A stretch of 64,000 nt of DNA from Escherichia coli (lineage in GTDB: Bacteria > Pseudomonadota > Gammaproteobacteria > Enterobacterales > Enterobacteriaceae): assembly GCF_045037415.1 (NCBI RefSeq), contig NZ_CP173438.1. One strand, 5' to 3'. Position 1 is the first letter of the stretch. Each line of letters starts with the position of its first letter. Shown piece after piece: positions 4,464 through 62,554 of this stretch. The position numbers and the translations under genes are program-made. The notes beneath the pieces are model-generated. The model was given only the letters and a program-made list of their open reading frames with translations, searched no databases and was not told the origin of the DNA.

Positions 4464-5250
4464 TAAACGTTGGCCAGTGCGGCTGTTGGTGCCAGATAGC
4501 CAGGTTTACCAGCAGCCCTGCCGGAACGTGCATATTATTCATAATGCCCAGCGTTCCGGCGTCCACCTGCGTCGCGCCGTAGTTCCACATAAAGTAGCCA
4601 ATCCCGGAAGCCACCACGCCAAGAAACACCAGAATGCCCCATTGCAACGTGGTTTGCGGCATTTTCTGCGCATTTCCCAGCAAGAACCATGCAATCACTG
4701 CCACCAGGAACGCGCCAAGATAGAACCACGCAAAGGCGTTATGCTGCGGCATCGGGCGAGTTTCCATCAGACGTTTGTAACCCACCATGCCGATGGCAAA
4801 AGTGATATTGGAGAGTTGCACCAGCAACAAGCCAGTCCAGAAATGGTCGGTGACCTGATCATAGCGAATAATCCCGGCACCAATCACCGCCAACAAGGCG
4901 CTAAAAGCATAGCCCCAGCGCAGACGGCGCTTACTCATGATGTCATAAATCAGCGTGATGTAGAGCGGCGTCAGTACGGTGAACAACAGCAGTTCAGAAA
5001 CCGTCAGGTAGAGATAGGCGCGGAAACTCAGCATATACATCACACCGAGCTGCATCGCGCCCACCAGCATATACAGGCCGACCGTTTTCAGGCTATTGCC
5101 ACGGGTACGCAGAAACGGCAGAAAAACAAGTGCCGCCAGACCAACGCGCACCAGCACCGCAAAATAGCTATCGACGTGCCCCGCAAGGTACTCGCCATAA
5201 AAGCTAAAGGAGAAGGCCCACAGAATCGTGGTGATGATAAGTAGCGCCAC
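4351..5250 (-). CDS. yigM: EamA/DMT-family inner membrane transporter (biotin transporter YigM/BioP)
   Basis: 299-aa polytopic membrane ORF; position between metR and yigL as in E. coli; 3' end overlaps the metR 3' end by 113 bp. Confidence 0.85.
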
Positions 5251-8045: not shown

Positions 8046-8906
8046 ATGACGGAAGCAACGACACCACATGACGCAATCTTTAAGGCTTTTTTATCCCGAC
8101 CAGAAACGGCCCGTGACTTTATTGAAATTCATCTGCCGCCTTCTTTAGTTAAACTCTGCAATCTTGATACGCTCCATCTCGAGTCCAGCAGTTTTGTAGA
8201 GGAAAACCTACGCCAGTATTACAACGACGTACTTTATTCAGTAGAGACGACGAAAGGGTGCGGATATATCTATGTGTTGATTGAGCATCAAAGTTCACCT
8301 GATGAAAATATGGCGTTCCGTATGCTTCGCTATGCTATTGCCACCATGCAGCGGCATCTTGAAGCGGGACATGATTATCTGCCTCTGGTGATCCCCATTC
8401 TTTTTTACCAGGGAAAGCGTAGCCCATATCCATGGTCAACAAACTGGCTCGATGGTTTTCCGGATCCGGACATTGCACGCGATCTCTATTTTCATGCTTT
8501 TCCGCTGGTTGATATTACGCTAATTCCTGATGACGAAATCATGCAACACCGCAGCATGGCCGCCTTTACGCTGGTACAGAAGCATATCCGTCAACGGGAT
8601 ATGACAACGCTGTTAGATAAGTTATCCCGCTTAATGATTCTGGGGCAGATGAGCGGACAGCAAATACGCATGTTGATAAACTACATGGCGCTGGTAGGTG
8701 AAGCACAGGATGTACGAACATTAGTACATGGTCTGGCACAACGAGTGCCTCAACAAGGAGAGGAACTGATGACTTTAGCGGAAGAACTTCGGCGCGATGC
8801 CCTTCTCAATGTCGCAAAAGCCATGCTACAGCGTGGCTTTGATTTGCAGTTGATTATGGAAATGACCGGGCTTTCTCAGGAAGACCTTTATCAATTGCAA
8901 TCCTGA
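8046..8906 (+). CDS. Rpn/YhgA-like PD-(D/E)XK recombination-promoting nuclease family protein
   Basis: 286-aa ORF; N-terminal pattern TPHDAIFKAFL..ETARDFIEIHLP...LHLESSSFVEE...YNDVLYSV...YVLIEHQSS is what I recognise from E. coli RpnA-E (Transposase_31 family). Recalled, not searched. Confidence 0.75.
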   Translation: MTEATTPHDAIFKAFLSRPETARDFIEIHLPPSLVKLCNLDTLHLESSSFVEENLRQYYNDVLYSVETTKGCGYIYVLIEHQSSPDENMAFRMLRYAIATMQRHLEAGHDYLPLVIPILFYQGKRSPYPWSTNWLDGFPDPDIARDLYFHAFPLVDITLIPDDEIMQHRSMAAFTLVQKHIRQRDMTTLLDKLSRLMILGQMSGQQIRMLINYMALVGEAQDVRTLVHGLAQRVPQQGEELMTLAEELRRDALLNVAKAMLQRGFDLQLIMEMTGLSQEDLYQLQS

Positions 8907-9628: not shown

Positions 9629-11458
9629 CTACTCTTCGTCGTCACCATCGACATGCGCACGAATCAGCGCCATAAACGGTTTGCCAAAGCGTTCCAGCTT
9701 GCGCATACCAACGCCGTTAACGCTGAGCATTTCGCTGGCGGTGATCGGCATCTGTTCAGCCATCTCAATCAAGGTAGCGTCGTTAAACACCACGTACGGC
9801 GGGACATTGCTTTCATCGGCAATCGATTTACGCAGTTTGCGTAATTTGGCGAACAGTTTGCGATCATAGTTGCCGCCGAACGATTTCTGCATCGCTTTCG
9901 GTTTGAGCGCCACGATACGCGGCACGGCAAGTTGCAAAGAGGATTCGCCGCGCAGCACCGGACGCGCAGCCTCTGTCAGTTGTAGGGCAGAATGCTGGGC
10001 AATATTTTGCGTCACCAGGCCGAGGTGAATCAGCTGGCGGATCACGCTCACCCAATGTTCATGGCTTTTATCACGGCCCATGCCATAGACTTTCAGTTTG
10101 TCATGACCATAGTCGCGGATACGCTGATTATTAGCACCGCGAATCACTTCCACCACATAACCCATCCCAAACCGCTGATTCACACGACCAATGGTGGAAA
10201 GGGCAATCTGCGCATCGGTTGAACCATCGTACTGTTTTGGCGGATCGAGGCAGATATCGCAGTTCCCGCACGGCTCCTGACGCCCTTCGCCAAAATAGTT
10301 CAGCAATACCAAACGACGGCAAGTTTGCGCTTCAGCAAACGCGCCCATCGCATTGAGTTTATGACGTTCGATATCCTGCAACTGCCCCTGCGGCTTCTCT
10401 TCCAGACAACGGCGCAGCCACGCCATATCAGCCGGATCGTAAAACAGCATCGCTTCCGCGGGCAGGCCATCACGCCCGGCGCGTCCAGTTTCCTGATAAT
10501 AGGATTCGATATTGCGCGGAATATCAAAATGCACCACGAAGCGAACGTTAGGCTTGTTGATGCCCATGCCGAACGCCACCGTCGCCACCACAATTTGCAG
10601 GTCATCGCGCTGGAATTTTTCCTGCACATCAGCGCGAACATTATTTTCCAGCCCGGCATGATAGGCCGCCGCGCTAATTCCCTTGCTTTGCAGGCGCGCA
10701 GCGGTGTCTTCTACTTTCGCACGACTATTACAGTAAATAATCCCCGACTTACCGCGTTGTTCCTGTACATAACGCATCAACTGATCGAGCGGTTTGAATT
10801 TCTCCATCAGCATGTAGCGAATATTCGGACGGTCAAAACTGCTGATTTGAATCAGCGGATCGTTCAGCCCCAGCAGGCGCACGATATCCTGGCGCGTGGT
10901 GTCATCGGCTGTGGCAGTCAGCGCCATAAACGGCAGCGTCGGAAAACGCTGACGCAGCTGACCGAGGGCAGCGTATTCCGGGCGGAAATCGTGACCCCAT
11001 TGGGAGATACAGTGCGCCTCATCAACGGCTAATAACACCGGATTCCAGTGCGCCAGATGCTCAAGAAAGTTATCCAGCATCAGGCGTTCCGGCGCGATAT
11101 AAAGCAGGCTGATTTGCCCGGTGCGACAGCCTGTCATCACTTCAAGTTGCTGCTCGCGGGTTTGCGTCGAGTTAAGGCACGCCGCCGCCACGCCGTTGGC
11201 TTGCAGTTGATCTACCTGATCTTTCATCAACGAAATCAGCGGTGAGACAACCACGGTAAGGCCGTTTAGCAATAAGGCAGGGATTTGATAGCAAAGGGAT
11301 TTTCCGCCACCAGTGGGCATGACGACCAGGCAATCGCGACCGGAAAGTACGGTGTCGATAATCTCTTCCTGGCCGGGGCGAAACTGTTGGTAGCCAAAGG
11401 TTTCTTGTAAAACCTGTTTAGCTCCGGACTCCAGATTCAACACTTCCGCCTGCGCCAC
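9629..11458 (-). CDS. recQ: ATP-dependent DNA helicase RecQ
   Basis: ORF 9629..11464; conserved start is the GTG two codons in ([17 protein letters not shown]), giving 609 aa. DEAH box (LLAVDEAH), RQC and HRDC regions present. Confidence 0.95.
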
Positions 11459-11476
11459 ATTCACCCCGATTGCCTG

Positions 11477-11507
11477 AAATAAAAACAGGCGCTATTTTCA
11501 GCGCCTG
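11477..11507 (-). terminator. Rho-independent terminator downstream of pldA
   Basis: Hairpin CAGGCGCT-ATTTTC-AGCGCCTG at 11486-11507, followed on the minus strand by TTTTTATTT. Confidence 0.55.
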
Positions 11508-11582
11508 CGCGAGAAACTGCAATGCTTTTAGTCTCTGAGAGGGTAATCCTGGATGCTGGATTCCAGATTTGCCAACCATTCA

Positions 11583-14026: not shown

Positions 14027-14120
14027 AAAATAAATATATTCTGAAAAAATATGCCTGCTCTTGCATAAGAGCGGGAATATTGCCATGCTAACGAAATTCT
14101 TACACAAGGATGTAAAATTA

Positions 14121-14501
14121 ATGTTGCGTATATTTATTCCAACATCTAAAGGCAGAATTTCCAGACGCCGCTATATATTTTCATTTATTTTTACAAATCT
14201 AATTTGTATCTTACTTATTTCTTTTTTTTCCAATGCCGGGGCTGGTTTCTTTGTTATAACATCTACCATTCTTTTACATTATCTCGTTATCAACATGAAT
14301 TGCCAACGACTCCGGGATAGTGGTTTTACTTATATAAAAACTTATATTTTTAGTACATTAGTAGTCTATATCATTTCTTTCATCATCATGGTTGCTGAGC
14401 ATTTTGACTGTTCTGGCAATGGTTCGATGATTTTTTTGATTTGTTATTTTTCCACCTTTGGCATGTTAGTTCTTGCCCCCACTGATTCCCCCCGTAAATA
14501 A
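14121..14501 (+). CDS. yigG: DUF805-family inner membrane protein
   Basis: ORF 14061..14501; RISRRRY motif near the N-terminus is typical of DUF805. Start chosen at MLRIF to give 126 aa. Sits in a low-GC block. Confidence 0.65.
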
Positions 14502-15904: not shown

Positions 15905-16258
15905 TGCTTAAAATATCGGACAGTTCGGTGGGCACACAGAAACAAATTGGGTTTCAGACCATTAAACAGCCTGACTCAGCGCGACGGGAAAAATTGAGGT
16001 CGCTGACAACCGCTAAGGCTATCAGCAAAAAGGGATAGCCTTAGGAGTTGATCCTGGATGACAGGATAGTGAGCCAGTATCTACTGGGTGTGTCCAAGGC
16101 GAATGTCCTCTTAGAGTGATCGTGCGCGCATGTTACGCCAGCAAAATTTTGCCGTCAACACGCAACAGAACACCACAGAACAATAGTTGAACTTCGCGCT
16201 TTTTGGTACTCGTCAAGGTCGCTAACAGGATAAAAAAATCCCACATTCAGGGCCTATA
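15905..16258 (-). promoter_or_regulatory. corA promoter and long 5' leader region
   Basis: 354-bp untranslated region upstream of corA. In enterobacteria corA carries a long regulatory leader; elements not mapped here. Confidence 0.4.
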
Positions 16259-17105: not shown

Positions 17106-18008
17106 ATGAAAAAAACGCTCGCAACATTATTTTTATTAACCTGTCTGGGGTCATCATCCGCTTATGCGGATAACGCTTTGATTTTACAAACGGATTTTAG
17201 CCTGAAAGATGGTGCCGTCTCGGCGATGAAAGGGGTCGCATTCGGTGTTGACCATAATCTTAAAATCTTTGATTTAACACACGAAATTCCACCGTATAAC
17301 ATCTGGGAAGGCGCTTATCGCCTGTATCAGACTGCCAGTTACTGGCCGCAAGGTTCGGTGTTTGTTAGCGTGGTCGATCCAGGTGTTGGTACAGACCGTA
17401 AATCGGTAGTGCTGAAAACCAAAAACGGTCAGTACTTCGTTTCACCAGATAACGGTACGCTCACGTTGGTGGCGGAATCGCTGGGTATTGAGAGCGTCCG
17501 GCAAATCGATGAAAAAACCAACCGTCTGAAAGGTTCCGAAAAGTCATATACCTTCCATGGTCGTGATGTATATGCCTACACCGGTGCGCGTCTGGCTTCC
17601 GGGGCGATCACGTTCGAGCAGGTGGGGCCAGAGCTTCCTGCAAAAGTTGTCGAACTTTCTTATCAGAAAGCCAAAGCAACAAAAGGTGAAGTGAAGGGCA
17701 ATATCCCGATTCTCGATATTCAGTACGGCAACGTCTGGAGCAATATCAGCGACGAGTTGCTGAATCAGGCAGGAATCAAACTCAACGACACGTTGTGTGT
17801 GACCATTTCCGAAGGTTCCCAGCAAAAATACGCAGGGAAAATGCCGTATGTCGCAAGCTTCGGCGATGTGCCGGAAGGCCAGCCGATGGTGTATCTGAAC
17901 AGCTTATTGAATGTTTCCGTGGCGCTGAATATGGATAATTTCGCGCAGAAACATCAGGTTGCGTCTGGTGCTGACTGGAATATTGATGTGAAGAAGTGCG
18001 CTAAGTAA
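17106..18008 (+). CDS. DUF62 / SAM hydroxide adenosyltransferase-like protein with N-terminal signal peptide
   Basis: 300-aa ORF; MKKTLATLFLLTCLGSSSAYA signal peptide (AXA site); then LQTDFSLKDGAVSAMKGV...DLTHEIPPY...VVDPGVGT...VSPDNGTLTL, the conserved N-domain pattern of DUF62. Starts 82 bp after yigE with a GAAGGGAAA RBS. Confidence 0.7.
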   Translation: MKKTLATLFLLTCLGSSSAYADNALILQTDFSLKDGAVSAMKGVAFGVDHNLKIFDLTHEIPPYNIWEGAYRLYQTASYWPQGSVFVSVVDPGVGTDRKSVVLKTKNGQYFVSPDNGTLTLVAESLGIESVRQIDEKTNRLKGSEKSYTFHGRDVYAYTGARLASGAITFEQVGPELPAKVVELSYQKAKATKGEVKGNIPILDIQYGNVWSNISDELLNQAGIKLNDTLCVTISEGSQQKYAGKMPYVASFGDVPEGQPMVYLNSLLNVSVALNMDNFAQKHQVASGADWNIDVKKCAK

Positions 18009-24515: not shown

Positions 24516-27062
24516 TCAAGAAAAATACTGCTGCAACAGCGGCGCGTCATGCTCCTGATTGGCAGGTGGCATGTTACCGATAGATTTGGTGCGAAACGGA
24601 ATCACCTGTTCACGACCATCAACCTTCACAATCTGATAGAACTGCGGCAGGTTGAAGTTGATGAAGCTTGAGCCGTAGGTGAAACGGTCGTGCGAAGACG
24701 AGTAGAAGCGACTGACGTCACGCACCAGTTCCTCTTTGCTGCCTTCGCAGTGGTGATACACCTCAACCCGGTTGCTTTCGTCGAGAATGTAGATATTAAA
24801 GCCATTCTCGTCTTGCGTTTCTTCGAAGAAGAACTGGATGATCCCTTCGCTGGCAAAGCCGTCCACCACCGCCGGTAATTTGACGTGATTGGTTTCAACC
24901 TGCACTGACAGGCCGTGCAGTTTGTTATGCGAAATAGCGCCATAAAACTCGATGGCGTTTTCCAGTTTCTGTACCGATACATTCAGCCGTTCGAAGAACA
25001 AGCCCCAGGTTTGACCGGAGACGCGCAGCGCCTTGAAGCGCCCGGTTTCCTGGCGGGTGCTGGAAAGACGCAGTTCAATACACTCAGAAACCAGTTGCTG
25101 CACGCGAGTACGGATTAACCCGCGCAGATGCTGGCTATAACAGAAGACTTCCACGCTATCTGGCGGTGCGGCGTCCTGATGCATTTTGCCGAGAATAGTT
25201 TTCAGGGCTTCGATCATCGATTGCTCGCCGTTGAAGTGCAGCGTACGCACTTCGTTCCACGAGTTGCGATACAGCAGGTCAACGCTACCCACCAGGCAAT
25301 TTTGATTCTCGCCAAAGCTGAAGACATCCAGCTTACGGAAATCAAAATGCACCACCTGATTGCGGAAGGCTGCCGTCGGGTCATATTCCAGGTTAACGAT
25401 AATCGCCAGATGGCGGATCTCACACGGGCTGTAGAGCGCCTTCGGTGTCGGTGCAGGTAAGCGCAGCGGGAAATGGTGCGACACGTCTGCGACCATCTCC
25501 TGCAACTTAGGCAAATCGACAATGCCGTTACCTTTAATATACAAACGGGTGCGAGAGGTCAGCAGGCCGTTAAACCATGCCCACGCCACCAGTTTATTCA
25601 GGTAGCGATTATATTCCAGCGGCTGATGGCTGATGATTGACTCAATATTTGGCGCGCGGTTATACAGATACCAACCTGAACGGTTGGCGCGGCCCGGCGG
25701 TACATAAATAAAGGTCAGATTCGGTTCCGAGAGATCGGGCGAAATCTGCGGGTTTACCAGCGTCACTTTACCCGGTAATGCTTCAAACGCGGCGTACAGT
25801 TTACGTGTCAGCACGCCGATATCCTGCGGGCTGGCGGAGACGCTAAGGTTATTGCGGCGCGCAAAGCGGATCAGATTACGGTAGCTCTGCATCATTGCGT
25901 CGAGCAGCTCGTTGTGCGCCTCACGCACCTGATCTATCTTCCAGTTAGCGCGGTTATCGAGCATTGCCAGACGAGCTTCGTCCCAACCCCACTCGCTCAC
26001 TAACTGGCTCAACACTGCGCGACGCCAGCCTACACAGGCGCGTTCACGGCTGAGCTTTTCGCACACTTTTAAATAGAAGCAGCGACGCACTAAATCCAGA
26101 CGGGTGAAATCTTCAATCGCCGTCAGGTATTCAGTAACACGCTCCAGCATCATGCAGTACGGGTCGAGGCCAAACGATACAATCTCGCCGTCGTGCAAAC
26201 GCTGTTTGATATCTTTCGCCAGCAGACGTGGGTTCGGGTATTCCCAGGAATAGGCTTCCAGCAGCAGTGTTTTCAGCACCGCTTTGTATGGGGAATCGAT
26301 ACTCTTGTAGAGCTGCCAAAGGCTGGCACCAAAGTACTCTTCAGCAGAAAGCGAGCTTAAGCCACCAAGATCCAGCCATTCATTTGGCGTCAGCACGCCC
26401 TGCGCGTAAAGCGTCATCACATAGTCGTCGTAATGCTCTTCTTCGTCGCACGGCACCATATTCCACAGAATACGCTTACCGGCGAGACGCACGGCGGTAC
26501 GATAAAATTCGTCAAGCAGCAGTATATGCTGGGTGGAGCCACAATCTTCGCCCCCCAGGCTGCCGCTTTCATTATGACGGAAGCGGTTTTCATCAATCAG
26601 GAAGAAGCTGACTTCCACACCCAGCGAGGCGGCCCAGCTTTCCAGCAGACTACATTTACGTTGTAGCAACTGGCGCTCTTCGCTATCGAGCCAGGATTGA
26701 TGACAGACCCAGATATCCAGGTCAGAGGAACAACTTTGCCCTACGGACGAGGTGCTGCCCATGGTGTATACACCAGTAATTGGAAGCTCACCTTTCGGTG
26801 GGTCCTGTACTGACATTCCACGATACAGTTCAAGCTCGTTCAGGTAGTGGCGTTGAGTTTCATCAGGCGTGTAAAGGCAAATGCCTTTGGGAACGTTACC
26901 ATCAAGGTAACCCGGCATTAGCGGATGGTGATAGTGCAACAATGTCGGCAGTAGACTGTAGACCTGTTGGAATGCAGGCCCCATAGCAGCAAGCGCGCGA
27001 TCCACACGCAATTGATTTATGGCATCCAGTCTCTGTTTCAGAGTCTCAATATAGAGGTACAA
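24516..27062 (-). CDS. cyaA: Adenylate cyclase (class I)
   Basis: 848-aa [30 protein letters not shown]...; the start codon at 27062-27060 reads TTG on the coding strand, as known for E. coli cyaA. Confidence 0.95.
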
Positions 27063-27448
27063 GACGTATCGCCTGATTTGCTACCCGTCATGACTGTGAT
27101 TCCGCCAACATCAACGGTAACACGCGGCATTCGGGATATTTCGTATGTCAAAGGTAACCGTTACCACTTTTCGCGCCTGGTTTTTTTAGTTTCACGACGA
27201 AAAAATGGTCTAAAACGTGATCAATTTAACACCTTGCTGATTGACCGTAAAGAAAGATGCGCTACATACAAGTGTAGCACCGTTTATTCTCTGTAAATTC
27301 CTTATTACGAAGGCTCAAAGCGCCTGTCAGGATCCACTGCCCGACCTCATTTTACGGTTTGCGCAGGCGTCTACGTTTCACCACAACACTGACATCGCTC
27401 TGGCAAGGATGTTAGGATGGACCACGGATGATAATGACGGTAACAAGC

Positions 27449-31593: not shown

Positions 31594-32193
31594 ATGTCAA
31601 ACATGCGCACACCGTCCCGCTATATTTTCCGCTTACCATCACATGAAATTAATCCTTTTCGGGCAACGCTCTTGCTGATTTTGTTGATATGTGCCGTTCT
31701 GGCTGGCGTAAGTTGGCTGATTCTGTCCTTCGTACGTACAGGCAATACATTCATCTTCTGGTTAACACTTTTTATTGGGTATCTGATAGCCATTGCGAAG
31801 CAGGAAAAAATCAAGCTCATCGAGAAGCGCCAGATTATGGCTGATAAACGTCAGGGACTTTCCATTTGTCAGTTCGCACGCCAATTTTCCCCCCACACCG
31901 TAGATACATGGGTGATTCGGGCTGTGTGGAATACCTTACAAGGAAACGGCTATATCGATTATCCATTACCACTGAAAGCCAGTGATAAACTGGACGATGA
32001 TCTGGATTTAGTAAACGATGCAGACGAGTTAGAAGAGCTGGTCGAAGATATTGCCGCTCGTTGTGGGCGCGATCTACGCGGAATAGAAGATAATCCGTTT
32101 CTTCCCATCACCACGGTAGGTTCTCTTGTAAGTGTATTAAACGCACAACCGATGACCCAAGAGCGACGTAGCCTGTTGTTTACTCGGTCATAA
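31594..32193 (+). CDS. Hypothetical two-TM membrane protein with acidic C-terminal domain
   Basis: 199-aa ORF in a 640-bp region between hemY and the GlmZ 3' end; AAGGA 9 nt upstream of the second ATG (31603); two hydrophobic helices then DDDLDLVNDADELEELVED. No family recognised. Confidence 0.45.
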   Translation: MSNMRTPSRYIFRLPSHEINPFRATLLLILLICAVLAGVSWLILSFVRTGNTFIFWLTLFIGYLIAIAKQEKIKLIEKRQIMADKRQGLSICQFARQFSPHTVDTWVIRAVWNTLQGNGYIDYPLPLKASDKLDDDLDLVNDADELEELVEDIAARCGRDLRGIEDNPFLPITTVGSLVSVLNAQPMTQERRSLLFTRS

Positions 32194-35804: not shown

Positions 35805-35918
35805 GGTCGCTCCTTGCCTGAAGTCATCCTTCAATAAGTTAAGGGCGAAATCATACCGTGGCGCAATGCGTTATTACGGGCGTTTATTGCGAAGGGAAAG
35901 TGACGAAATGCACAGAAA

Positions 35919-35944
35919 ACAAAAAACCCCGCCGAAGCGGGGTT
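35919..35944 (-). terminator. Rho-independent terminator of the argX-hisR-leuT-proM tRNA operon
   Basis: Minus-strand AACCCCGCTTCGGCGGGGTTTTTT immediately 3' of tRNA-Pro. Confidence 0.75.
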
Positions 35945-35950
35945 CAAAAT

Positions 35951-36027
35951 TGGTCGGCGAGAGAGGATTCGAACCTCCGACCCACTGGTCCCAAACCAGT
36001 TGCGCTACCAAGCTGCGCTACTCGCCG
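35951..36027 (-). tRNA. proM: tRNA-Pro (CGG)
   Basis: Reverse complement reads CGGCGAGTAGCGCAGCTTGGTAGCGCAACTGGTTTGGGACCAGTGGGTCGGAGGTTCGAATCCTCTCTCGCCGACCA. Confidence 0.95.
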
Positions 36028-36069
36028 AAATACTGCTTTTTGAATTTTTAGTTCAATTCTTTAAAGTCG

Positions 36070-36155
36070 TGGTGCGAGGGGGGGACTTGAACCCCCACGT
36101 CCGTAAGGACACTAACACCTGAAGCTAGCGCGTCTACCAATTCCGCCACCTTCGC
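36070..36155 (-). tRNA. leuT: tRNA-Leu (CAG)
   Basis: Reverse complement reads GCGAAGGTGGCGGAATTGGTAGACGCGCTAGCTTCAGGTGTTAGTGTCCTTACGGACGTGGGGGTTCAAGTCCCCCCCTCGCACCA (long variable arm). Confidence 0.93.
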
Positions 36156-36175
36156 ATTGTCACAACTTCTAATAA

Positions 36176-36252
36176 TGGGGTGGCTAATGGGATTCGAACC
36201 CACGACAACTGGAATCACAATCCAGGGCTCTACCAACTGAGCTATAGCCACC
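36176..36252 (-). tRNA. hisR: tRNA-His (GUG)
   Basis: Reverse complement reads GGTGGCTATAGCTCAGTTGGTAGAGCCCTGGATTGTGATTCCAGTTGTCGTGGGTTCGAATCCCATTAGCCACCCCA, including the extra 5' G. Confidence 0.95.
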
Positions 36253-36309
36253 ACTACAAATCTTGTTACGCGGTATTACTACCACCGCAGCTCAAGCGCC
36301 GGGACTAAA

Positions 36310-36386
<77 letters not shown>

Positions 36387-36488
36387 TTAGCGCCGTTGCG
36401 GGGGTGGATAATACGGACTTCCCACCCCTCTGTCTAGTCCCTTTTTAAATAAATTGCGCGTTTGGTTACGGTTTGTGCGTTTTGCTGC

Positions 36489-37874
36489 TTATTCCTCCAG
36501 TTTATGCGCTTTACCGTGGCGATTAAGCCCAAAAACTTTATAAATCGCCGTCACCGTCAGCATAAAGATGATGCCGACAAACAGCGACATACGCGTATCT
36601 TCATTAAAGTACATGCCGATCAAAACGCAAATCAGGAATGCCATTGTTACGTAGTTGGCCCAAGGGAACAGGATTGAGCGGAACGGATGGCTGGCAATTG
36701 CCGCTTTATGCGCACGACGAAAACGCAGCTGGCTAATCAATATCACAAACCATGGCACCATCCCCGGAAGCACGCTGGCACTGTAGACATAGACAAACAC
36801 ACGCTGCGGATTGGGAATGATGTAGTTCAGGCATGAGCCAATTAGCAGAATAGCAATAGATACCGCCACACCCGCAACCGGTACGCCGTGACGGGAAACT
36901 TTCGCCATCGCCGCCGGTAACTGACGGTTTTTCGCCAGTGCATAGAGCATACGTCCGCAACTGTACATGCCACTGTTACAGCCAGAAAGCGCTGCCGTCA
37001 GCACCACAAAGTTAATAATGCCCGCCGCAGCGGTAATGCCGATTTTGGCGAAAGTCAGTACGAACGGGCTGCCGTTGCTGCCTATTTCATTCCACGGGAA
37101 GATGGTAACGATAACGAAAATCGCGCCTACGTAGAAAATCAGGATTCGCCACAGCACCTTGCCTACAGCGCTACGCAGCGTCACCTGCGGATTCTTCGCT
37201 TCACCGGCAGTAATGCCAATCAGCTCCACGCCCTGGTAGGACGCCACCACAATACACAATGCGGTCAGGAACCCTTTCCAGCCACCCGCAAAGAAACCGC
37301 CATGCTCTGTGAGATTGCTAAAACCAATCGACTGCCCGCCATTGCCAAAGCCAAAGAAAATCACGCCCAGGCCAATGACAATCATCACGATAATCGTGGT
37401 GACTTTGATCATCGCGAACCAGAACTCGATTTCGCCGTACAACCTCACCGCAGCCAGATTCGCCAACGCCACCAGCGCCACCGCGATCAATGCGGGTATC
37501 CACTGCGCCATCTCCGGGAACCAGAACTGGACATAAACGCCAATGGCGGTGATTTCTGAGATCCCCACCGCCATCCACATAAACCAGTAAGACCAGGCGG
37601 TGAGATAGCCAAAGAACGGGCTCATATAACGATGCGCGTAAACGGCGAACGAACCGGTAACCGGTTCGAGGAACAACATTTCGCCCATTGAACGCATGAT
37701 GAAAAAGACGAACAGCCCGGCGATGATATAGGCCAACAATACGGATGGCCCGGCCCATTTCAGGGTACTGGCGGCCCCCATAAACAGGCCGACGCCAATG
37801 GTGCCCCCCAGGGCGATGAGTTCGATATGTCGAGCTTCCAGCCCACGCTGTAGCTCTGGTTTGTTATCTGCCAT
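36489..37874 (-). CDS. yifK: APC-family amino acid permease
   Basis: 461-aa 12-[41 protein letters not shown]... Confidence 0.9.
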
Positions 37875-43619: not shown

Positions 43620-44294
43620 TCACCTGTATAACCAGTACGCGGTGCTTTCTACATTCGCACCACTTTGTATGTATCGTTTAAGCGCGGCGGTGTTGCCCAT
43701 CTGGGTCGCCACCCGCAAAGTTGTTTTACCGCGAGCATACGCCCAGTTTAGCGCCGTTTGCATTAGCTCAGCACCTGCACCGCGTCCAGCCAGCAGGCCA
43801 ATTCGCGCATCTGTCGCATTGAGTTCCCGTAAAGAGACATAACCGCGAATATCGCCGGACGCCGCACGTAAAATCAGACATTGATGATCAAAGGTGCCGC
43901 GCACGGCATTTTCAATCCACTGTGCATAAAAGCGACCGCTGGCGTCAGGCGCATACCACGGCGCACGAAAACGGCTTTGCGCAAATGCGGCGCTGGCTAA
44001 CTGACGTAATGCGGGAATATCGGTCTCTTGTGCCACTACTGCACCGCTATCACTGACATTGTTCACGGGTAGTGCCAAATCAACTTCACCTTCTATCAGG
44101 GAGAATCCCAGCTGTTGCAGAGCATCCAGTTCACCCGTATTTGATGCCGCAATTTTGGCCTGCACCCGTGACCACGGCGCTAAGGCGTCTGGCGTCAGGA
44201 GTGCCGCGTCAGGGCTAATACGCACAATGGCGCTGTTAACACCAAAGAAGGCGTTTTCCCAGGTTAGTGGCTCAATACTGGCGCGGACGGGCAC
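43620..44294 (-). CDS. wecD: dTDP-fucosamine acetyltransferase
   Basis: 224-aa GNAT-type ORF; its 5' end overlaps the rffH 3' end by 23 bp. Confidence 0.85.
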
Positions 44295-45171: not shown

Positions 45172-46239
45172 TTAGCCTTTCAGACCTAAACGCTCGCCCT
45201 GATAGCTGCCGTCCTGCACCTGCTTCCACCAGCTTTCATTAGCCAGATACCACTGCACCGTTTTACGCATTCCACTTTCAAAGGTTTCCTGCGGCAGCCA
45301 GCCAAGTTCACGGGCAATTTTCGAAGCATCAATGGCATAACGCAGATCATGCCCCGGACGGTCAGCGACAAAGGTGATCAGGTCACGATAGTGCGCCACG
45401 CCGTGCGGCTTATTCGGAGCCAGTTCTTCCAGCAGCTCGCAAATGGTTTCCACAACATCGAGATTCTTACGCTCGTTGTGACCACCAATATTATAGGTTT
45501 CACCGACTTTCCCGGTGGTCGCCACGCAATACAGCGCGCGGGCGTGATCTTCAACATACAGCCAGTCACGGATTTGCTGCCCGTTGCCATATACCGGCAG
45601 CGGTTTACCCGCCAGCGCGTTGAGGATCATCAGCGGGATCAGTTTTTCCGGAAAGTGGTAAGGACCGTAGTTATTCGAGCAGTTGGTGATAAGCGTCGGC
45701 AGACCATAGGTCCGCAGCCAGGCGCGCACCAGATGGTCGCTGCTGGCTTTTGACGCGGAATAAGGGCTGCTCGGCGCATACGGCGTGGTTTCGGTGAAGA
45801 AATCATCCGTCGAGTGCAGGTCACCATATACTTCGTCGGTGGAGATATGATGAAAACGGAACGCTGATTTTTTATCTTCCGTCAGCGCAGTCCAGTAAGC
45901 CCGCGCCGCTTCAAGCAGTGTATAAGTCCCGACAATGTTGGTTTCAATAAACGCTGCCGGGCCGTCAATAGAACGGTCAACATGGCTTTCGGCTGCCAGA
46001 TGCATGACACAGTCTGGCTGATACTCAGTGAATACGCGCGCCAGTTCTGCCCGATCGCAGATATCAACTTTCTCAAAGGCAAAGCGCTCGCTTTGCGCGA
46101 CCGGTGCCAGCGACATCAGGTTTCCGGCGTAGGTCAGCGTATCGACCACCACCACCGCGTCGCTCGTTTCGTTGATGATATAACGCACCAGCGCCGAGCC
46201 AATAAACCCGGCACCACCTGTTATCAGAATCTTTCTCAT
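45172..46239 (-). CDS. rffG: dTDP-glucose 4,6-dehydratase 2
   Basis: 355-aa [28 protein letters not shown]... Confidence 0.92.
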
Positions 46240-47501
46240 CAGCGCCAGACTCCTTTGGCATCGACGACATACTGCTGATGGACGTTGTCGCCATTGATAA
46301 CTTTGAACTGACTATGATCGACCAGCATCACCAGCACATCTGCCGTTGCCAGCGCCTCGTCAAGCTGCGCCAGAGTACAAAGCCCGGTCAGTTTCTTCGG
46401 CAACTGGTGGATGTTAGGCTCAACAACCAGCGTTTCGCCGCTGTGCCACTGGGCGATCAGTTCAGCGATTTCCATTGCCGGACTTTCGCGCAGGTCATCA
46501 ATATTCGGTTTAAACGCCAGACCAAAGCAGGCGATTTTCAGTTCATTGGCGCGTTTATCGGTAGCAGCCAGACAATCAGCCACCGCCGCTTTCACCTGAT
46601 CGATAACCCAGAACGGTTTGTGATCGTTCACTTCGCGCGCGGTACGGATAAGCCGCGCCTGCTGGGGGTTCTGTGCCACGATAAACCACGGATCAACAGC
46701 GATGCAGTGACCGCCCACGCCAGGGCCTGGCTGAAGAATATTGACGCGAGGGTGACGATTCGCCAGGCGAATCAGTTCCCAGACGTTAATCCCCTGATCG
46801 GCACAAATCAGCGACAATTCATTAGCAAAAGCGATATTCACATCGCGGAAGCTGTTTTCGGTGAGCTTACACATTTCCGCCGTCCGCGAGTTAGTGACGA
46901 CACACTCACCTTCGAGGAAAATTTTGTACAGTTCGCTGGCGCGGGCCGAACAAACCGGCGTCATACCACCAATCACGCGATCGTTTTTAATCAGCTCGAC
47001 CATAACCTGGCCCGGTAATACGCGTTCCGGGCAGTAAGCAATGTTGACGTCCGCCAACTCGCCCACCTGCTGTGGGAAAGTGAGATCTGGACGCATCTCT
47101 GCTAACCATTCTGCCATCTTCTCGGTTGACCCCACCGGCGAGGTGGATTCAAGGATCACTAACGCGCCTTTTTTCAGCACTGGCGCAATGGAGCGAGCAG
47201 CCGATTCAACGTAGGTCATATCTGGCTCATGATCGCCTTTAAACGGTGTGGGTACAGCAATCAACCAGGCATCCGCTTCAACTGGCGTCGTGCTCGCTCG
47301 TAAAAAACCGCCTTCTACGGCAGTTTTTACTACGCTCGCCAAATCAGGCTCGACGATATGGATTTCGCCACGATTGATGGTATCAACCGCGTGTTGGTTG
47401 ATATCGACACCAATCACCTGTTTTTGCCTTGAGGCAAACGCAGCTGCTGTAGGCAGCCCGATGTAACCCAGTCCGATAACAGAAATGGTCGCAAAACTCA
47501 T
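46239..47501 (-). CDS. wecC: UDP-N-acetyl-D-mannosamine dehydrogenase
   Basis: 420-aa [26 protein letters not shown] (NAD-binding). Confidence 0.92.
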
Positions 47502-48628
47502 AGTGATATCCGATTATTTTTTAACGCTTCCAGAATGCGAGAGCATGCCTGACCATCACCATACGGGTTATGGGCGCGGCTCATAGCTTGATATTCGTTT
47601 TCGTCTTTTAAAAGACGCGTCACTTCCTCGACAATTCGCTGCTTATCCGTGCCGACCAGACGCACCGTACCCGCCGTCACCGCTTCCGGACGCTCAGTGG
47701 TATCGCGCATCACCAGCACCGGTTTCCCCAGCGAAGGCGCTTCTTCCTGAATGCCGCCTGAGTCGGTCAAAATCAGCCAGGCGTGGTTCATCAGCCAGAC
47801 AAACGGTAAATACTCCTGGGGATCGATCAGAATGACATTTTTCACATGCCCCAGAATGCGATTGACCGGCTCTCTGACGTTCGGGTTGAGATGCACCGGA
47901 TAGACAATCTGGATGTCCTGGTGCGTGGTGGCGATGTCTGCCAGCGCATGGCAGATTTCTTCAAAGCCACGACCGAAGCTCTCACGCCTGTGACCGGTCA
48001 CCAGAATCATCTTTTTATCGGGGTCGATAAACGGGTAATTTGCCGCCAGTTCTGAACGCAGCGTATCGCTGCTCATCACCTGGTCACGCACCCATAACAG
48101 TGCATCAATGACTGTATTACCAGTAATGAAGATTCGGCTATCCGCAACGTTTTCACGCAGCAAGTTTTGCCGGGAAGTTTCGGTTGGAGAAAAATGATAC
48201 ATCGCCAGATGCCCGGTCAATGTACGGTTAGCCTCTTCCGGCCACGGCGAATAGAGATCGCCCGTGCGCAGACCAGCCTCAACGTGACCAACAGGAATAC
48301 GCTGATAAAACGCCGCCAGGCTGGTTGCCAGCGTCGTCGTAGTATCGCCGTGAACCAGCACGACATCTGGTTTGAACTCGGCAAGAATAGGTTTTAGCCC
48401 TTCCAGAATCCGACAGGTTATCTCTGTAAGGCCTTGTCCTGGCTGCATTATGTTGAGATCGTAGTCAGGTACAATGGAAAAGAGTTTCAGCACCTGATCG
48501 AGCATCTCCCGATGCTGCGCAGTGACGCAAACTTTAGCCTCAAAAAAAGGATCTTTTGCCAACGCATGCACCAACGGTGCCATCTTGATGGCTTCCGGGC
48601 GCGTACCAAATACAGTCAGTACTTTCAC
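47498..48628 (-). CDS. wecB: UDP-N-acetylglucosamine 2-epimerase
   Basis: ORF 47498..48670; conserved start corresponds to a GTG at 48628-48626 ([20 protein letters not shown]), giving 376 aa. Confidence 0.9.
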
Positions 48629-48683
48629 ATCGATTCTCTTCGAATAAGCGGCGAGCGCCTTTGCGCTCACCGCAGCAGTGTTG

Positions 48684-49741: not shown

Positions 49742-50845
49742 TTATTTGGTTAAATTGGGGCTGCCACCACGATTTCTACGCAGTCTGCGTTTTACGCGCT
49801 TAATAAAGCGAGCAACTTTCCAGGCACGCTTGATGCAATATCCATAGAGGAAGAATGCTAGCAAAAAGAGCACCAGCATGACCCACTCCGGGACAAAATG
49901 AGAATATTCTGCCAGCACGCCAATGGAAGCGAGCAATGCTGCGGCAAGGGTAATCAGCACAAACGCCTGGCGGGAAGTAAACCCGGCACGCATGATCAAA
50001 TGGTGAATATGCTGACGGTCTGGAGAGAATGGGCTCATGCCTTTACGCAGGCGACGGTACATAATCGCCACCATATCCATTAGCGGAATGGCGATAATCC
50101 ACAAAGCGGTAACCGGGCTGATGGGATGAGTTTTGCCCTGGGTCGTTTCGAGCAGGATCCAGATAACGGTAAAACCAATCAGCGTACTGCCCGCATCCCC
50201 CATAAAGACTTTGTAGCGGCGACCCAGGATACCAAGGTTAAGCATGATGTATGGCAGGATGGCGGCGATCATCGCAAAGCACCAGATTGCGAGACTGGTT
50301 TGCCCGTCGAACCACAAAATCATACCGATTGCTGCAAACGAGACGCAGGACAACCCGCCCAGCAAGCCATCAATGCCATCAACCATGTTGAACGCATTAA
50401 TGGCCGCCCAGACGGCAAATAGCGTCAGGAAGTAACCAAACGGTCCGAGCACCATCTCCCAGGAGCCAAAGATATAACCCAGGCTACTGAGATAAAGTTT
50501 GCCGAACACCATCATAACAATGCCAACAGCGGCCTGTATGGTGGCTCGGATTTTTACGCTGATATCAAAACGGTCATCCAGCGCGCCAATGAAAACAAGC
50601 ACACCAGCACAAGCGAGATAGAGAGATGCATGCGGAATATAGTAGTCGACAATTCCGAACGTGAAGCAAATCCCTGCGTAAACCGAAATCCCCCCAACGA
50701 GAGGTATCAATCCCTGGTGACGTTTGCGGAAGTTTGGTTTATCCACTAAACCGACTTTTTTTGCCACCTTACGGGCAAAAAACAGAAACAGTGTCGTGAA
50801 TAAAAAAATACTGATGAGATCAGTACTCACTGTCAGTAAATTCAC
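49742..50845 (-). CDS. wecA: UDP-GlcNAc:undecaprenyl-phosphate GlcNAc-1-phosphate transferase
   Basis: 367-aa polytopic membrane ORF (MraY/WecA family); first gene of the ECA cluster after rho. Confidence 0.92.
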   Translation of the reverse strand: MNLLTVSTDLISIFLFTTLFLFFARKVAKKVGLVDKPNFRKRHQGLIPLVGGISVYAGICFTFGIVDYYIPHASLYLACAGVLVFIGALDDRFDISVKIRATIQAAVGIVMMVFGKLYLSSLGYIFGSWEMVLGPFGYFLTLFAVWAAINAFNMVDGIDGLLGGLSCVSFAAIGMILWFDGQTSLAIWCFAMIAAILPYIMLNLGILGRRYKVFMGDAGSTLIGFTVIWILLETTQGKTHPISPVTALWIIAIPLMDMVAIMYRRLRKGMSPFSPDRQHIHHLIMRAGFTSRQAFVLITLAAALLASIGVLAEYSHFVPEWVMLVLFLLAFFLYGYCIKRAWKVARFIKRVKRRLRRNRGGSPNLTK

Positions 50846-58497: not shown

Positions 58498-59973
58498 TTA
58501 ACCCGCAACAGCAATGCGTTTCATATCTGTCATATAGCCGCGCAGTTTCTTACCTACCTGCTCAATCGCATGGCTGCGAATCGCTTCATTTACATCACGC
58601 AGCTGCGCGTTATCTACCGCACCTTCCGGAATAGCTTTACCCAGGTCGCCCGGTTGCAGCTCTGCCATAAACGGTTTCAGCAGTGGCACACAAGCGTAAG
58701 AGAACAGATAGTTACCGTACTCGGCAGTATCGGAGATAACCACGTTCATTTCGTACAGACGCTTACGGGCGATGGTGTTGGCAATCAGCGGCAGTTCGTG
58801 CAGTGATTCATAGTAAGCAGATTCTTCGATGATGCCAGAATCAACCATGGTTTCAAACGCCAGTTCAACGCCTGCTTTTACCATCGCGATCATCAGTACG
58901 CCTTTATCGAAGTACTCCTGTTCGCCGATTTTGCCTTCATACTGCGGCGCGGTTTCGAATGCGGTTTTGCCAGTCTCTTCACGCCAGGTCAGCAGTTTCT
59001 TATCGTCGTTGGCCCAGTCAGCCATCATGCCGGAGGAGAATTCGCCGGAGATGATGTCGTCCATATGTTTCTGGAACAGCGGCGCCATGATCTCTTTCAG
59101 TTGCTCAGAGAGCGCGTAAGCACGCAGTTTCGCCGGGTTAGAAAGACGGTCCATCATCAGGGTGATGCCGCCCTGTTTCAGCGCTTCGGTGATGGTTTCC
59201 CAACCGAACTGAATCAGTTTTTCTGCGTATGCCGGATCGGTGCCTTCTTCCACCAGCTTGTCGAAGCACAGCAGAGAGCCAGCCTGCAACATACCGCACA
59301 GGATGGTTTGCTCGCCCATCAGGTCAGATTTCACTTCCGCAACGAAAGAGGATTCCAGAACGCCCGCACGGTGACCGCCGGTTGCAGCCGCCCAGGCTTT
59401 AGCGATCGCCATGCCTTCGCCTTTCGGATCGTTTTCCGGGTGAACGGCAATCAGCGTCGGTACGCCGAATCCACGTTTGTACTCTTCACGTACTTCGGTG
59501 CCAGGGCATTTCGGCGCAACCATTACGACGGTGATGTCTTTACGGATCTGCTCACCCACTTCTACGATATTGAAACCATGAGAGTAGCCCAGCGCCGCGC
59601 CGTCTTTCATCAGCGGCTGAACGGAACGCACTACGTCAGAGTGCTGCTTGTCTGGCGTCAGGTTAACCACCAGATCCGCCTGCGGGATCAGTTCTTCGTA
59701 AGTGCCAACTTTGAAGCCGTTTTCGGTTGCTTTACGCCAGGATGCGCGCTTCTCGGCAATCGCTTCTTTACGCAGAGCGTAGGAGATATCGAGACCAGAA
59801 TCACGCATGTTCAGGCCCTGGTTCAGACCCTGTGCACCACAGCCGACGATGACTACTTTTTTACCCTGAAGATAGCTCGCGCCATCGGCGAATTCATCGC
59901 GCCCCATAAAGCGACATTTGCCCAGCTGTGCCAGCTGCTGGCGCAGATTCAGTGTATTGAAGTAGTTAGCCAT
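58498..59973 (-). CDS. ilvC: Ketol-acid reductoisomerase
   Basis: ORF 58498..60195; conserved start [23 protein letters not shown] gives 491 aa. Confidence 0.97.
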
Positions 59974-60122
59974 GGTGATTCCTCGTGATGTTGTGCTTCT
60001 TATTGTTCGGTTCGCGTTTGCGAGATTGAATTCACTATATGACAGGAAATTTATTGCGGAAATTGATATATTCACAACGTCACATTGCAATTTCTGCAAC
60101 GTCAACATTAAGGGCTGCGCCA
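59974..60122. promoter_or_regulatory. Divergent ilvC/ilvY promoter-operator region (IlvY binding expected)
   Basis: 149-bp divergent intergenic region between ilvC and its LysR-type activator; individual operators not mapped. Confidence 0.5.
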
Positions 60123-61013
60123 TTGGATTTACGCGATCTGAAAACCTTCCTGCATCTGGCGGAAAGCCGCCATTTTGGCCGCAGCGCGCGGGCAATGCAC
60201 GTTAGCCCGTCCACGCTCTCTCGGCAGATTCAGCGCCTGGAAGACGATCTCGGTCAGCCGCTGTTTGTGCGCGATAACCGCACGGTAACGCTAACCGAAG
60301 CAGGCGAAGAACTGCGCGTTTTCGCCCAGCAAACGCTGTTGCAGTATCAACAGCTGCGCCACACCATCGATCAGCAAGGACCGTCGCTCTCTGGCGAATT
60401 ACATATCTTCTGCTCGGTGACCGCTGCCTACAGCCATCTGCCGCCGATTCTCGATCGCTTCCGCGCGGAACACCCGTCGGTGGAGATTAAACTCACGACT
60501 GGTGATGCGGCAGATGCGATGGAAAAGGTCGTCACTGGCGAAGCGGATCTGGCGATTGCCGGGAAACCGGAGACTCTGCCCGGCGCAGTGGCGTTTTCGA
60601 TGCTGGAGAATCTGGCAGTAGTGCTGATTGCCCCCGCGCTACCCTGCCCGGTGCGTAACCAAGTTTCGGCAGATAAGCCGGACTGGTCTACAGTGCCGTT
60701 TATCATGGCCGATCAGGGACCAGTACGCCGGCGCATTGAGTTGTGGTTTCGACGCAACAAAATCAGCAACCCGATGATTTACGCCACGGTCGGCGGGCAT
60801 GAAGCGATGGTGTCGATGGTGGCGCTCGGCTGTGGCGTAGCCTTGTTGCCGGAAGTGGTGCTGGAAAACAGCCCGGAACCGGTGCGTAACCGCGTGATGA
60901 TTTTAGAGCGCAGTGATGAGAAAACGCCGTTTGAACTGGGCGTGTGTGTGCAGAAAAAGCGGCTACATGAGCCGCTGATTGAGGCATTCTGGAAGATTTT
61001 GCCGAACCATTAA
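60123..61013 (+). CDS. ilvY: LysR-family activator of ilvC
   Basis: ORF 60039..61013; conserved N-terminus (M)[39 protein letters not shown] begins at a TTG codon at 60123, about 296 aa. Confidence 0.88.
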
Positions 61014-62554
61014 CCCGCCAAAAAGAACCTGAACGCCGGGTTATTGGTTTCGTCGTGGCAATCGTAACCCAACTCATTCAACCGGGTTTCGAAATCCGGT
61101 TCATGGTCGCCAAGTTCGAACGCCGCCAGTACGCGCCCGTAGTCGGTGCCATGGCTGCGATAGTGGAACAAAGAAATGTTCCAGTGCGTACCCAGCGTGT
61201 TGAGGAAGCGCAACAGCGCGCCCGGCGATTCCGGGAATTCGAAGCTGTAGAGGCGTTCCTGCAACGGATGCGACGGACGCCCGCCGACCATATAGCGCAC
61301 ATGCAGCTTCGCCATTTCGTCGTCGGAGAGATCCACTACGCTGTAGCCGCCATCGTTGAGCATCTGCAAAATTTCTTTGCGCTCTTCGAGGCCACGGCTC
61401 AGGCGCACACCGACAAAGATGCAGGCGTTTTTGGCATCGGCAAAACGGTAGTTGAACTCGGTGACCGAGCGCCCGCCAAGCAGCTGGCAGAACTTCAGGA
61501 AGCTGCCCTTCTCTTCCGGGATGGTTACCGCCAGCAACGCTTCACGCTGTTCGCCCAGTTCGCAACGTTCCGAGACGTAGCGCAGGCCGTGAAAGTTCAC
61601 GTTAGCACCAGAAAGAATATGCGCCAGCCGCTCACCGCGAATGTTGTGCTGGGCGATATATTTTTTCATTCCCGCCAGTGCCAGCGCGCCAGAGGGTTCC
61701 GCTACCGCGCGCACATCTTCGAACAGGTCTTTCATCGCCGCACATATGGCATCGCTATCGACGGTGATGATGTCGTCGAGATACTCCTGGCATAAACGGA
61801 AGGTTTCGTCGCCGATGCGTTTCACCGCAACACCTTCGGCAAACAGCCCCACGCGTGGCAGATCAACCGGATGACCTGCATCCAGCGCCGCTTTCAGGCA
61901 GGCGGAGTCTTCCGCTTCCACGGCAATCACTTTGATTTGCGGCATCAGTTGTTTGATCAGTACCGCCACGCCCGCCGCCAGACCGCCGCCGCCGACTGGC
62001 ACAAATACGCGGTCGAGATGGGCGTCCTGCTGGAGCAGTTCCAGCGCCAGCGTGCCTTGCCCGGCGATCACCATCGGATGGTCGAACGGCGGCACCCAGG
62101 TGAAGCCCTGCTGCTGTGACAGTTCGATCGCTTTCGCTTTTGCTTCATCAAAGTTCGCGCCGTGAAGAAGCACTTCGCCGCCGAAGCCGCGCACCGCGTC
62201 GACTTTGATATCGGCGGTGGCGGTTGGCATGACGATCAGTGCCTTCACGCCTAACCGTGCGGAAGAAAACGCGACGCCCTGCGCGTGGTTACCCGCAGAA
62301 GCGGTGATCACGCCGTGCGCTTTCTGTTCTTCCGTCAGGCCCGCCATCATGGCGTATGCGCCGCGCAGCTTAAAGCTATGAACTGGCTGACGGTCTTCGC
62401 GTTTCACCAGAATCACGTTATCGAGACGCGACGAGAGTTTTTCCATTTTTTGTAGCGGCGTGACCTGCGCCGCTTCGTAGACCGGCGCGCGCAGCACCGC
62501 TCTTAAATATTCGGCGCCTTCCGGGGCGCCGGAGAGAGGTTGTGAGTCTGCCAT
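61010..62554 (-). CDS. ilvA: Biosynthetic threonine dehydratase
   Basis: ORF 61010..62557; start at second Met (MADSQPLSGAPEGAEYLRAVL) gives 514 aa; 3' end overlaps the ilvY stop by 4 bp. Confidence 0.95.
   Translation of the reverse strand: MADSQPLSGAPEGAEYLRAVLRAPVYEAAQVTPLQKMEKLSSRLDNVILVKREDRQPVHSFKLRGAYAMMAGLTEEQKAHGVITASAGNHAQGVAFSSARLGVKALIVMPTATADIKVDAVRGFGGEVLLHGANFDEAKAKAIELSQQQGFTWVPPFDHPMVIAGQGTLALELLQQDAHLDRVFVPVGGGGLAAGVAVLIKQLMPQIKVIAVEAEDSACLKAALDAGHPVDLPRVGLFAEGVAVKRIGDETFRLCQEYLDDIITVDSDAICAAMKDLFEDVRAVAEPSGALALAGMKKYIAQHNIRGERLAHILSGANVNFHGLRYVSERCELGEQREALLAVTIPEEKGSFLKFCQLLGGRSVTEFNYRFADAKNACIFVGVRLSRGLEERKEILQMLNDGGYSVVDLSDDEMAKLHVRYMVGGRPSHPLQERLYSFEFPESPGALLRFLNTLGTHWNISLFHYRSHGTDYGRVLAAFELGDHEPDFETRLNELGYDCHDETNNPAFRFFLAG

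Follow-up and report, generated by a model that had tools for sequence, protein, structure and literature searches.

Near-cognate start codons of ilvY, cyaA, recQ and wecB in the metE to ilvD segment of the Escherichia coli chromosome

In the ribosomal P site, initiator fMet-tRNA (anticodon CAU) decodes GUG and UUG despite a mismatch at the first position. The protein is still Met-initiated, and initiation is several-fold lower than at AUG and more dependent on initiation factors. Blattner et al. are said to have found, in 1997, ~17% non-ATG starts genome-wide in E. coli.

The closest described system is the UUG start of E. coli cyaA (Reddy, Peterkofsky & McKenney 1985; Yoshida et al. 2001), a textbook example since 1985. 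Adenylate cyclase yields from UUG, GUG and AUG stand at 1:2:6 (Reddy et al. 1985 as summarised in the available text of PMC5499595), and according to the same text many enterobacteria and other gammaproteobacteria retain the cyaA UUG. The cya gene belongs to the polyamine modulon owing to its inefficient start codon (PMC7177335). The cyaA gene analysed here is the same case, its TTG and upstream sequence being identical to those of K-12; recQ, wecB and ilvY are set beside it by sequence, and the mutagenesis data are those of cyaA alone. Other conserved gammaproteobacterial non-AUG starts are infC AUU, tufA/fus GUG, hupB GUG and spoT UUG (available text of PMC5499595), and they resemble cyaA, wecA, wecB and recQ in that a gene-specific codon is kept across genera. 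That text names cyaA, tufA/fus, hupB, infC and spoT, not wecA, wecB or recQ, and nothing here corresponds to the IF3 autoregulation that operates at infC. A literature search on the recQ GTG start and on the wecA and wecB GTG starts found nothing relevant.

Non-ATG starts across the window

The window (the whole 64,000-nucleotide stretch of DNA that was analysed) is an E. coli chromosome segment running from metE to ilvD. The gene order is metE, metR, bioP, recQ, pldA, corA, uvrD, xerC, dapF, cyaA, hemCDXY and aslAB, followed by four tRNAs, thrP, the wec/rff cluster, rho, trxA, rhlB, gppA, rep and ppiC, and lastly ilvC, ilvY, ilvA and ilvD. The whole window is 94.2-97.8% identical to K-12 MG1655, in reverse orientation. 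PGAP annotation was taken from strain SK1144, which is near-identical to the window; a 3-kb probe around the ilvY start is 100% identical between the two and also matches several hundred other E. coli genomes at 100% identity.

K-12 lacks several segments found in the window: at the left end (1-800), hxlB and a ptsG-like gene; between rhtB and rhtC (8046-8906), a gene for an Rpn-family recombination-promoting nuclease; between yigE and uvrD (17106-18008), a gene of the SAM hydrolase/halogenase family; and, adjoining hemY (31594-32193), a hypothetical 199-aa ORF. Two 1-bp indels distinguish the window from SK1144. One falls between 14026 and 14515 (noted at 14061-14501), where PGAP calls the yigG-like gene of SK1144 a frameshifted pseudogene; the other, which compensates for it, falls in the tRNA region (35834-36489) that separates aslB from thrP. 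The convergent metR and bioP (yigM) genes have coding 3' ends that overlap by 113 nt (4351-4463), an overlap annotated in K-12 too.

Start codons of the 55 complete annotated CDS in the window comprise 47 ATG, 5 GTG and 3 TTG. GTG heads bioP, recQ, rffC, wecB and wecA, and TTG heads ysgD, cyaA and ilvY. The original prediction had listed ilvY, cyaA, recQ and wecB, all correctly, and had missed the other four:

5248..5250, minus strand: bioP (yigM) start codon GTG (annotation)
16095..16097, minus strand: start codon TTG of ysgD, an 18-aa small protein (annotation)
44292..44294, minus strand: rffC start codon GTG (annotation; not conserved across species)
50843..50845, minus strand: wecA start codon GTG (annotation; GTG in 72/72 species)

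The non-ATG frequency of 8/55 (14.5%) is at or slightly below the genome rate, and binomial tests on the 55 CDS of the window indicate no local enrichment (P(X>=8) = 0.74; P(>=3 TTG) = 0.23). There is also no enrichment by functional class, with recQ alone being non-ATG among the five helicase-type genes of the window. The two regulators are divided, metR starting with ATG and ilvY with TTG. The prediction had associated weak starts with regulators and helicases, a grouping contradicted by uvrD, rep, rhlB, rho and the regulator metR, all of which start with ATG in the window. Compensation of a weak start codon by a stronger Shine-Dalgarno (SD) element was considered and rejected, the mean duplex energy being -4.2 kcal/mol for the 8 non-ATG genes versus -5.2 kcal/mol for the 47 ATG genes.

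A start-codon survey that puts non-ATG starts at 'up to 20%' (PMC5622118) agrees with these observations in finding GUG and UUG to be minority starts with lower expression, and in the switching among AUG, GUG and UUG that is seen here at ilvY, rffC and rffG. The survey stresses selection towards AUG and compensation by stronger SD elements, whereas in the window SD elements are not stronger and four genes hold the weak codon in all the species compared.

Four starts and the conservation of their codons

The four starts named in the prediction and their coding sequences are as follows:

60123..60125, plus strand: ilvY start codon TTG (sequence and PGAP; same position in 55 species)
60123..61013, plus strand: ilvY CDS, a 296-aa LysR-type regulator (PGAP)
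27060..27062, minus strand: cyaA start codon TTG (sequence, PGAP, K-12 annotation, orthologues and literature)
24516..27062, minus strand: cyaA CDS, an 848-aa class I adenylate cyclase (PGAP)
11456..11458, minus strand: recQ start codon GTG (sequence, PGAP and K-12 annotation; best SD duplex, -6.3 kcal/mol)
9629..11458, minus strand: recQ CDS, 609 aa (PGAP and Pfam)
48626..48628, minus strand: wecB start codon GTG (sequence and annotation; GTG in 71/71 species)
47498..48628, minus strand: wecB CDS, a 376-aa UDP-GlcNAc 2-epimerase (annotation, PDB and Pfam)

TTG is read in the sequence at 60123 (plus) for ilvY and 27062 (minus) for cyaA, and GTG at 11458 (minus) for recQ and 48628 (minus) for wecB. 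All four positions match the PGAP annotation of SK1144 and the K-12 MG1655 reference annotation, and alignment with orthologues, the check that the prediction had proposed, backs every one of the four sites from other species. Sequence, cross-species alignment and Pfam/PDB boundaries place each near-cognate codon at the conserved protein N-terminus, and for none of the four genes does an in-frame AUG fit both transcript and conservation. An SD-like element at 5-10 nt spacing is present for all four (recQ GGGG, -6.3; ilvY AAGGG, -4.9; wecB AAGAGA, -2.9; cyaA AGGCG, conserved, -2.9 kcal/mol). SD elements are weak, about -2.7 to -2.9 kcal/mol, in cyaA, wecB and wecA. By duplex energy with the 16S 3' end, the annotated starts rank above the upstream alternatives.

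We are highly confident that these are genuine, already annotated near-cognate starts, with the codons of cyaA, recQ, wecB and wecA probably under selection for low initiation and the ilvY TTG probably near-neutral. The four non-ATG starts are ordinary and already known, and the significance is small, since RefSeq and the K-12 reference annotation already have all four right. Only two points are mildly new: GTG heads wecA and wecB without exception in the 71-72 species examined, and within E. coli the ilvY start is commonly polymorphic between TTG and GTG.

The cyaA TTG is followed by codons for (M)YLYIETLKQ. It is TTG in 6/6 sequences, comprising four orthologue contigs (Salmonella, Klebsiella, Serratia and Erwinia), K-12 and the window, and a conserved TCAGGCGA..GTC motif precedes it throughout this set of six. 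The N-terminal peptide is almost unchanged in the 120 best homologues, one of which has H for the first Y, and extended CyaA predictions read Leu at the start position. Pfam Adenyl_cycl_N aligns from its profile position 2 to CyaA residue 5, which excludes a downstream start. The gene cannot be extended in the other direction because of an in-frame stop (27083..27081):

27081..27083, minus strand: in-frame TAG, 7 codons 5' of the cyaA TTG (sequence)

Gene callers disagree on the RecQ N-terminus (603-630 aa), and a protein search shows that the conserved sequence begins V(A/T)(Q/E)AEV. The crystallised E. coli RecQ core (PDB 1OYW) begins MAQAEV. The codon equivalent to 11458 is GTG in 9/9 sequences (the window and 8 orthologue contigs), with a conserved GGGG or GGAG before it. 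The region directly 5' of the gene is occupied by a terminator, and its hairpin is conserved in the recQ orthologue contigs:

11475..11508, minus strand: pldA terminator hairpin (11508..11485) and T-tract, directly 5' of recQ (terminator scan)

The wec genes were compared in a cross-species set of 80 Enterobacterales loci, with one representative per species, anchored on RhlB and taken with a 10-kb flank on each side; orthologue N-termini were placed on the 80 loci by tblastn. Every Enterobacterales species in which wecB was compared (71/71), ranging from Escherichia to Serratia, Pectobacterium and Erwinia, starts the gene with GTG; being phylogenetically related, these species do not amount to 71 independent trials. 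The upstream AAGAGA has an invariant AGAG core and the wobble positions of codons 3-10 vary among the 71 species. The E. coli UDP-GlcNAc 2-epimerase structure (PDB 1F6D) has 376 aa and begins MKVL, the same length and N-terminus as the protein initiated at the wecB GTG. wecA is likewise GTG in 72/72 species. In this set, genes with an ATG start in E. coli keep it throughout (rffA 67/67, wecC 70/70, rho 73/73, rhlB 80/80, rep 72/72, ppiC 71/71 and ilvC 57/57). The rffC start codon is variable across species. The neighbouring rffG (46237-46239) has ATG in E. coli, and among 30 species with a mapped N-terminus its codon is TTG in 14, ATG in 12 and GTG in 4.

Conserved GTG at wecB (71/71) and recQ (9/9) and TTG at cyaA (6/6) fit selection for a weak start. 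cyaA (TTG) and recQ, wecB and wecA (GTG) form one class that holds a single weak codon in every species examined, and this retention implies purifying selection for a low initiation rate. In cyaA, wecB and wecA the weak codon goes together with a weak SD element. From these alignments we infer that recQ, wecB and wecA may be adaptively throttled. At wecA and wecB the weak starts may limit the draw on undecaprenyl phosphate and UDP-GlcNAc, which is plausible on general knowledge. The prediction had described weak starts as a translational throttle: the general idea is established, and experiments document start-codon throttling for cyaA; for recQ, wecB and wecA it is plausible, and for ilvY it lacks support. 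The constant GTG of wecA and wecB could guide expression engineering of enterobacterial common antigen (ECA) and glycoconjugate pathways.

An alternative is that the weak codons are suboptimal states tolerated in weakly expressed genes under mutation-selection balance, and not throttles. This is unlikely but keeps some weight, the frequency of non-ATG starts in the window being equal to background. Drift predicts switching, however, and wecA (72/72), wecB (71/71), recQ (9/9) and cyaA (6/6) are never ATG even though adjacent wobble sites are saturated. Start-codon mutagenesis of cyaA shifts expression up to 6-fold (available text of PMC5499595), which also argues against tolerance.

A second alternative makes the conserved non-AUG codons condition sensors tuned by polyamines, IF3/IF2 or ppGpp instead of fixed attenuators. 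The codons are deeply conserved, cya is documented in the polyamine modulon through its UUG start (PMC7177335), and UUG mRNAs are reported to be the least sensitive to ppGpp and nutritional state (available text of PMC5499595). Conservation alone cannot tell a fixed low level from conditional control, and the case for sensing is built on cya, not on recQ, wecA or wecB; ilvY, recQ and wecB are not listed as polyamine modulon members in PMC7177335. Condition sensing is judged improbable as a general account of the conserved codons.

A more speculative proposal, which we rate as quite improbable, has two separate parts. WecA and WecB are the first enzymes committing undecaprenyl phosphate and UDP-GlcNAc to ECA, and their GTG codons could reflect selection for non-AUG-dependent control of envelope-precursor flux via IF3, polyamines or ppGpp, as proposed for cyaA; the ilvY TTG/GTG polymorphism, with the SD changes linked to it, could make strains differ heritably in their IlvY level and in how inducible ilvC is. 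The reading preferred here for cyaA, recQ, wecB and wecA remains selection for low initiation.

Upstream in-frame codons

The open reading frames of three of the four genes continue 5' of the annotated start, and longest-ORF calling would mis-start ilvY, recQ and wecB. The prediction held that ORFs extended to an upstream ATG overlap promoter regions. This is true of ilvY only (ATG 60039, 324 aa), both for the ATG and for the promoter overlap; recQ and wecB extend to GTG, no upstream in-frame ATG being present in the window for either, and cyaA has no extension. The codons and neighbouring elements are:

60039..60041, plus strand: upstream in-frame ATG, rejected as ilvY start (heads a 324-aa mechanically called ORF)
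60051..60071, plus strand: IlvY operator O2, overlapping the ilvY -10/-35 and the ilvC -35 (matches published O2)
60082..60102, plus strand: IlvY operator O1, ACATTGCAATTTCTGCAACGT (matches published O1)
60110..60114, plus strand: SD-like AAGGG, 8 nt 5' of the ilvY TTG (16S 3'-end duplex -4.9 kcal/mol)
11462..11464, minus strand: alternative GTG, 2 codons 5' of the recQ start, rejected as main start (heads the mechanically called ORF)
48668..48670, minus strand: alternative GTG, 14 codons 5' of the wecB start, rejected (heads a 390-aa mechanically called ORF)

IlvY has an N-terminal HTH_1 domain, a LysR_substrate domain, a divergently oriented ilvC and TTGCA-N5-TGCAA operators in the intergenic region. 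The ilvY transcription start was taken from published operator positions and not from a scan. O1 is centred at +17 from the transcription start and O2 lies over the ilvY -10 and -35 (PMC5002191, citing Wek & Hatfield 1988), which places the transcription start near 60076, a position that derives from a secondary source on K-12 mapping. The ATG at 60039 is ~37 nt upstream of this inferred position and is not conserved, and it was rejected as the ilvY start. Its SD duplex is -3.0 kcal/mol versus -4.9 kcal/mol for the TTG at 60123. The TTG is followed by GAT TTA CGC GAT CTG, giving (M)DLRDL. Counted from the TTG, Pfam HTH_1 begins at residue 3, whereas counted from the ATG of the extended ORF it begins at residue 31; residue 3 is the usual position for a LysR-type regulator and fits the TTG start. 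An in-frame stop lies 2-7 codons upstream of the ilvY start in most species, which rules out the extended form.

At recQ, only 5/9 sequences have an upstream GTG at the position matching 11464, the others having GTC, GTT or GAG, and its SD duplex is -2.8 kcal/mol versus -6.3 kcal/mol for 11458. Both candidates are GTG, so the recQ start is non-ATG regardless of which is used. A minor second initiation at GTG 11464 may occur in lineages having that codon. At wecB, an in-frame stop lies 4-6 codons 5' of the start in most species, and the alternative GTG at 48670 has no SD element (+0.4 kcal/mol) and sits at the foot of a GAGCGC/GCGCTC hairpin.

These upstream codons could be the true starts (ilvY ATG 60039, recQ GTG 11464 and wecB GTG 48670), the annotated ilvY and wecB positions being mere conventions. 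The ORFs are open to those codons in the window, the ilvY frame is open to -32 codons in E. albertii and in a few Citrobacter and Salmonella, and several gene callers predict an extended RecQ of 611-630 aa. This reading is very improbable and is strongly disfavoured by the conservation seen in the alignments: the ilvY ATG precedes the transcription start, is cut off by stops in most species and displaces HTH_1 to residue 31; wecB is closed by stops and 48670 lacks an SD; the recQ GTG at -2 is missing in 4/9 sequences and has a weak SD; and cyaA is without any extension. The annotated starts are retained. Direct N-terminus or initiation-site data for ilvY, recQ and wecB were found neither in the TRAINSPOTTER N-terminomics supplements, which contain none of ilvY, recQ, wecB, cyaA and wecA, nor in the available text of the Ribo-RET preprint, which makes no mention of these five genes.

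An out-of-frame ATG lies 2 nt 5' of the GTG in both recQ and wecB, in the overlapping arrangement ATGTG. In recQ it opens a 7-codon ORF (11438-11460, minus strand). In wecB (48625-48630, minus strand) it forms the start-stop ATG-TGA, similar to those that Ribo-RET has described within genes. The ATGTG overlap was rejected as a conserved feature, being found in only 3/9 recQ sequences and in 32/71 species for wecB.

Codon variation at ilvY

The ilvY start position is constant in 55/55 species recovered, and the codon at that position is GTG in 27, ATG in 27 and TTG in 1 (E. albertii). K-12 itself has GTG, not TTG, according to its annotation. To count variation within E. coli, 36-nt probes with the start codon at their centre were matched to 5426 complete genomes; a 28-nt megablast seed cannot fit into such a probe without covering the start codon, so every match carries that codon. 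The TTG haplotype is present in at least 3276/5426 genomes (at least 60%) and the K-12-type GTG haplotype in at least 1774/5426 (at least 33%), including K-12 and O157:H7. Three sampled genomes from the lower-identity bands (SW4848, MB06022 and O145 RM8995) have TTG in 3/3, and PGAP annotates it as the start.

The ilvY TTG is not a conserved throttle, since half of the 55 species have ATG and TTG/GTG is polymorphic within E. coli. The start position is kept while the codon switches freely among ATG, GTG and TTG, and TTG is a lineage-specific, probably near-neutral state. Inducer-independent negative autoregulation by IlvY could buffer such changes, which is speculation. Of the two alleles, that of the window (AAGGG with TTG; -4.9 kcal/mol) is the weaker by prediction, the SD duplex of the K-12 one (GAGGG with GTG) reaching -6.4 kcal/mol.

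The ilvC-ilvY intergenic region is 150 bp long. [quoted passage not shown] Four clustered substitutions within 8 nt, directly 5' of and including the start codon, separate the K-12 and window haplotypes (GCGCCATTG versus GTCCCTGTG; 60105-60125). An E. albertii origin of the window ilv allele was considered, TTG being common to both, and was rejected, the identity over ilvC-ilvY being 92.1% to E. albertii versus 94.8% to K-12.

The ilvC-ilvY-ilvA segment (58498-62385) is unusually divergent within E. coli, with 4322/5433 matching records only 90-95% identical to the window over 3 kb. K-12 is 94.8-95.1% identical in this segment versus about 97-98% for most of the window. IlvY is one residue shorter in the window (296 aa) than in K-12 (297 aa). 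In the window ilvY and ilvA, which converge, share a TTAA palindrome at their ends (61010-61013), so that their TAA stops overlap on opposite strands; K-12 has instead an ilvY-ilvA spacer of about 59 nt with a REP-like palindrome (GCCTGATAAGCGAAGCGCTATCAGGC).
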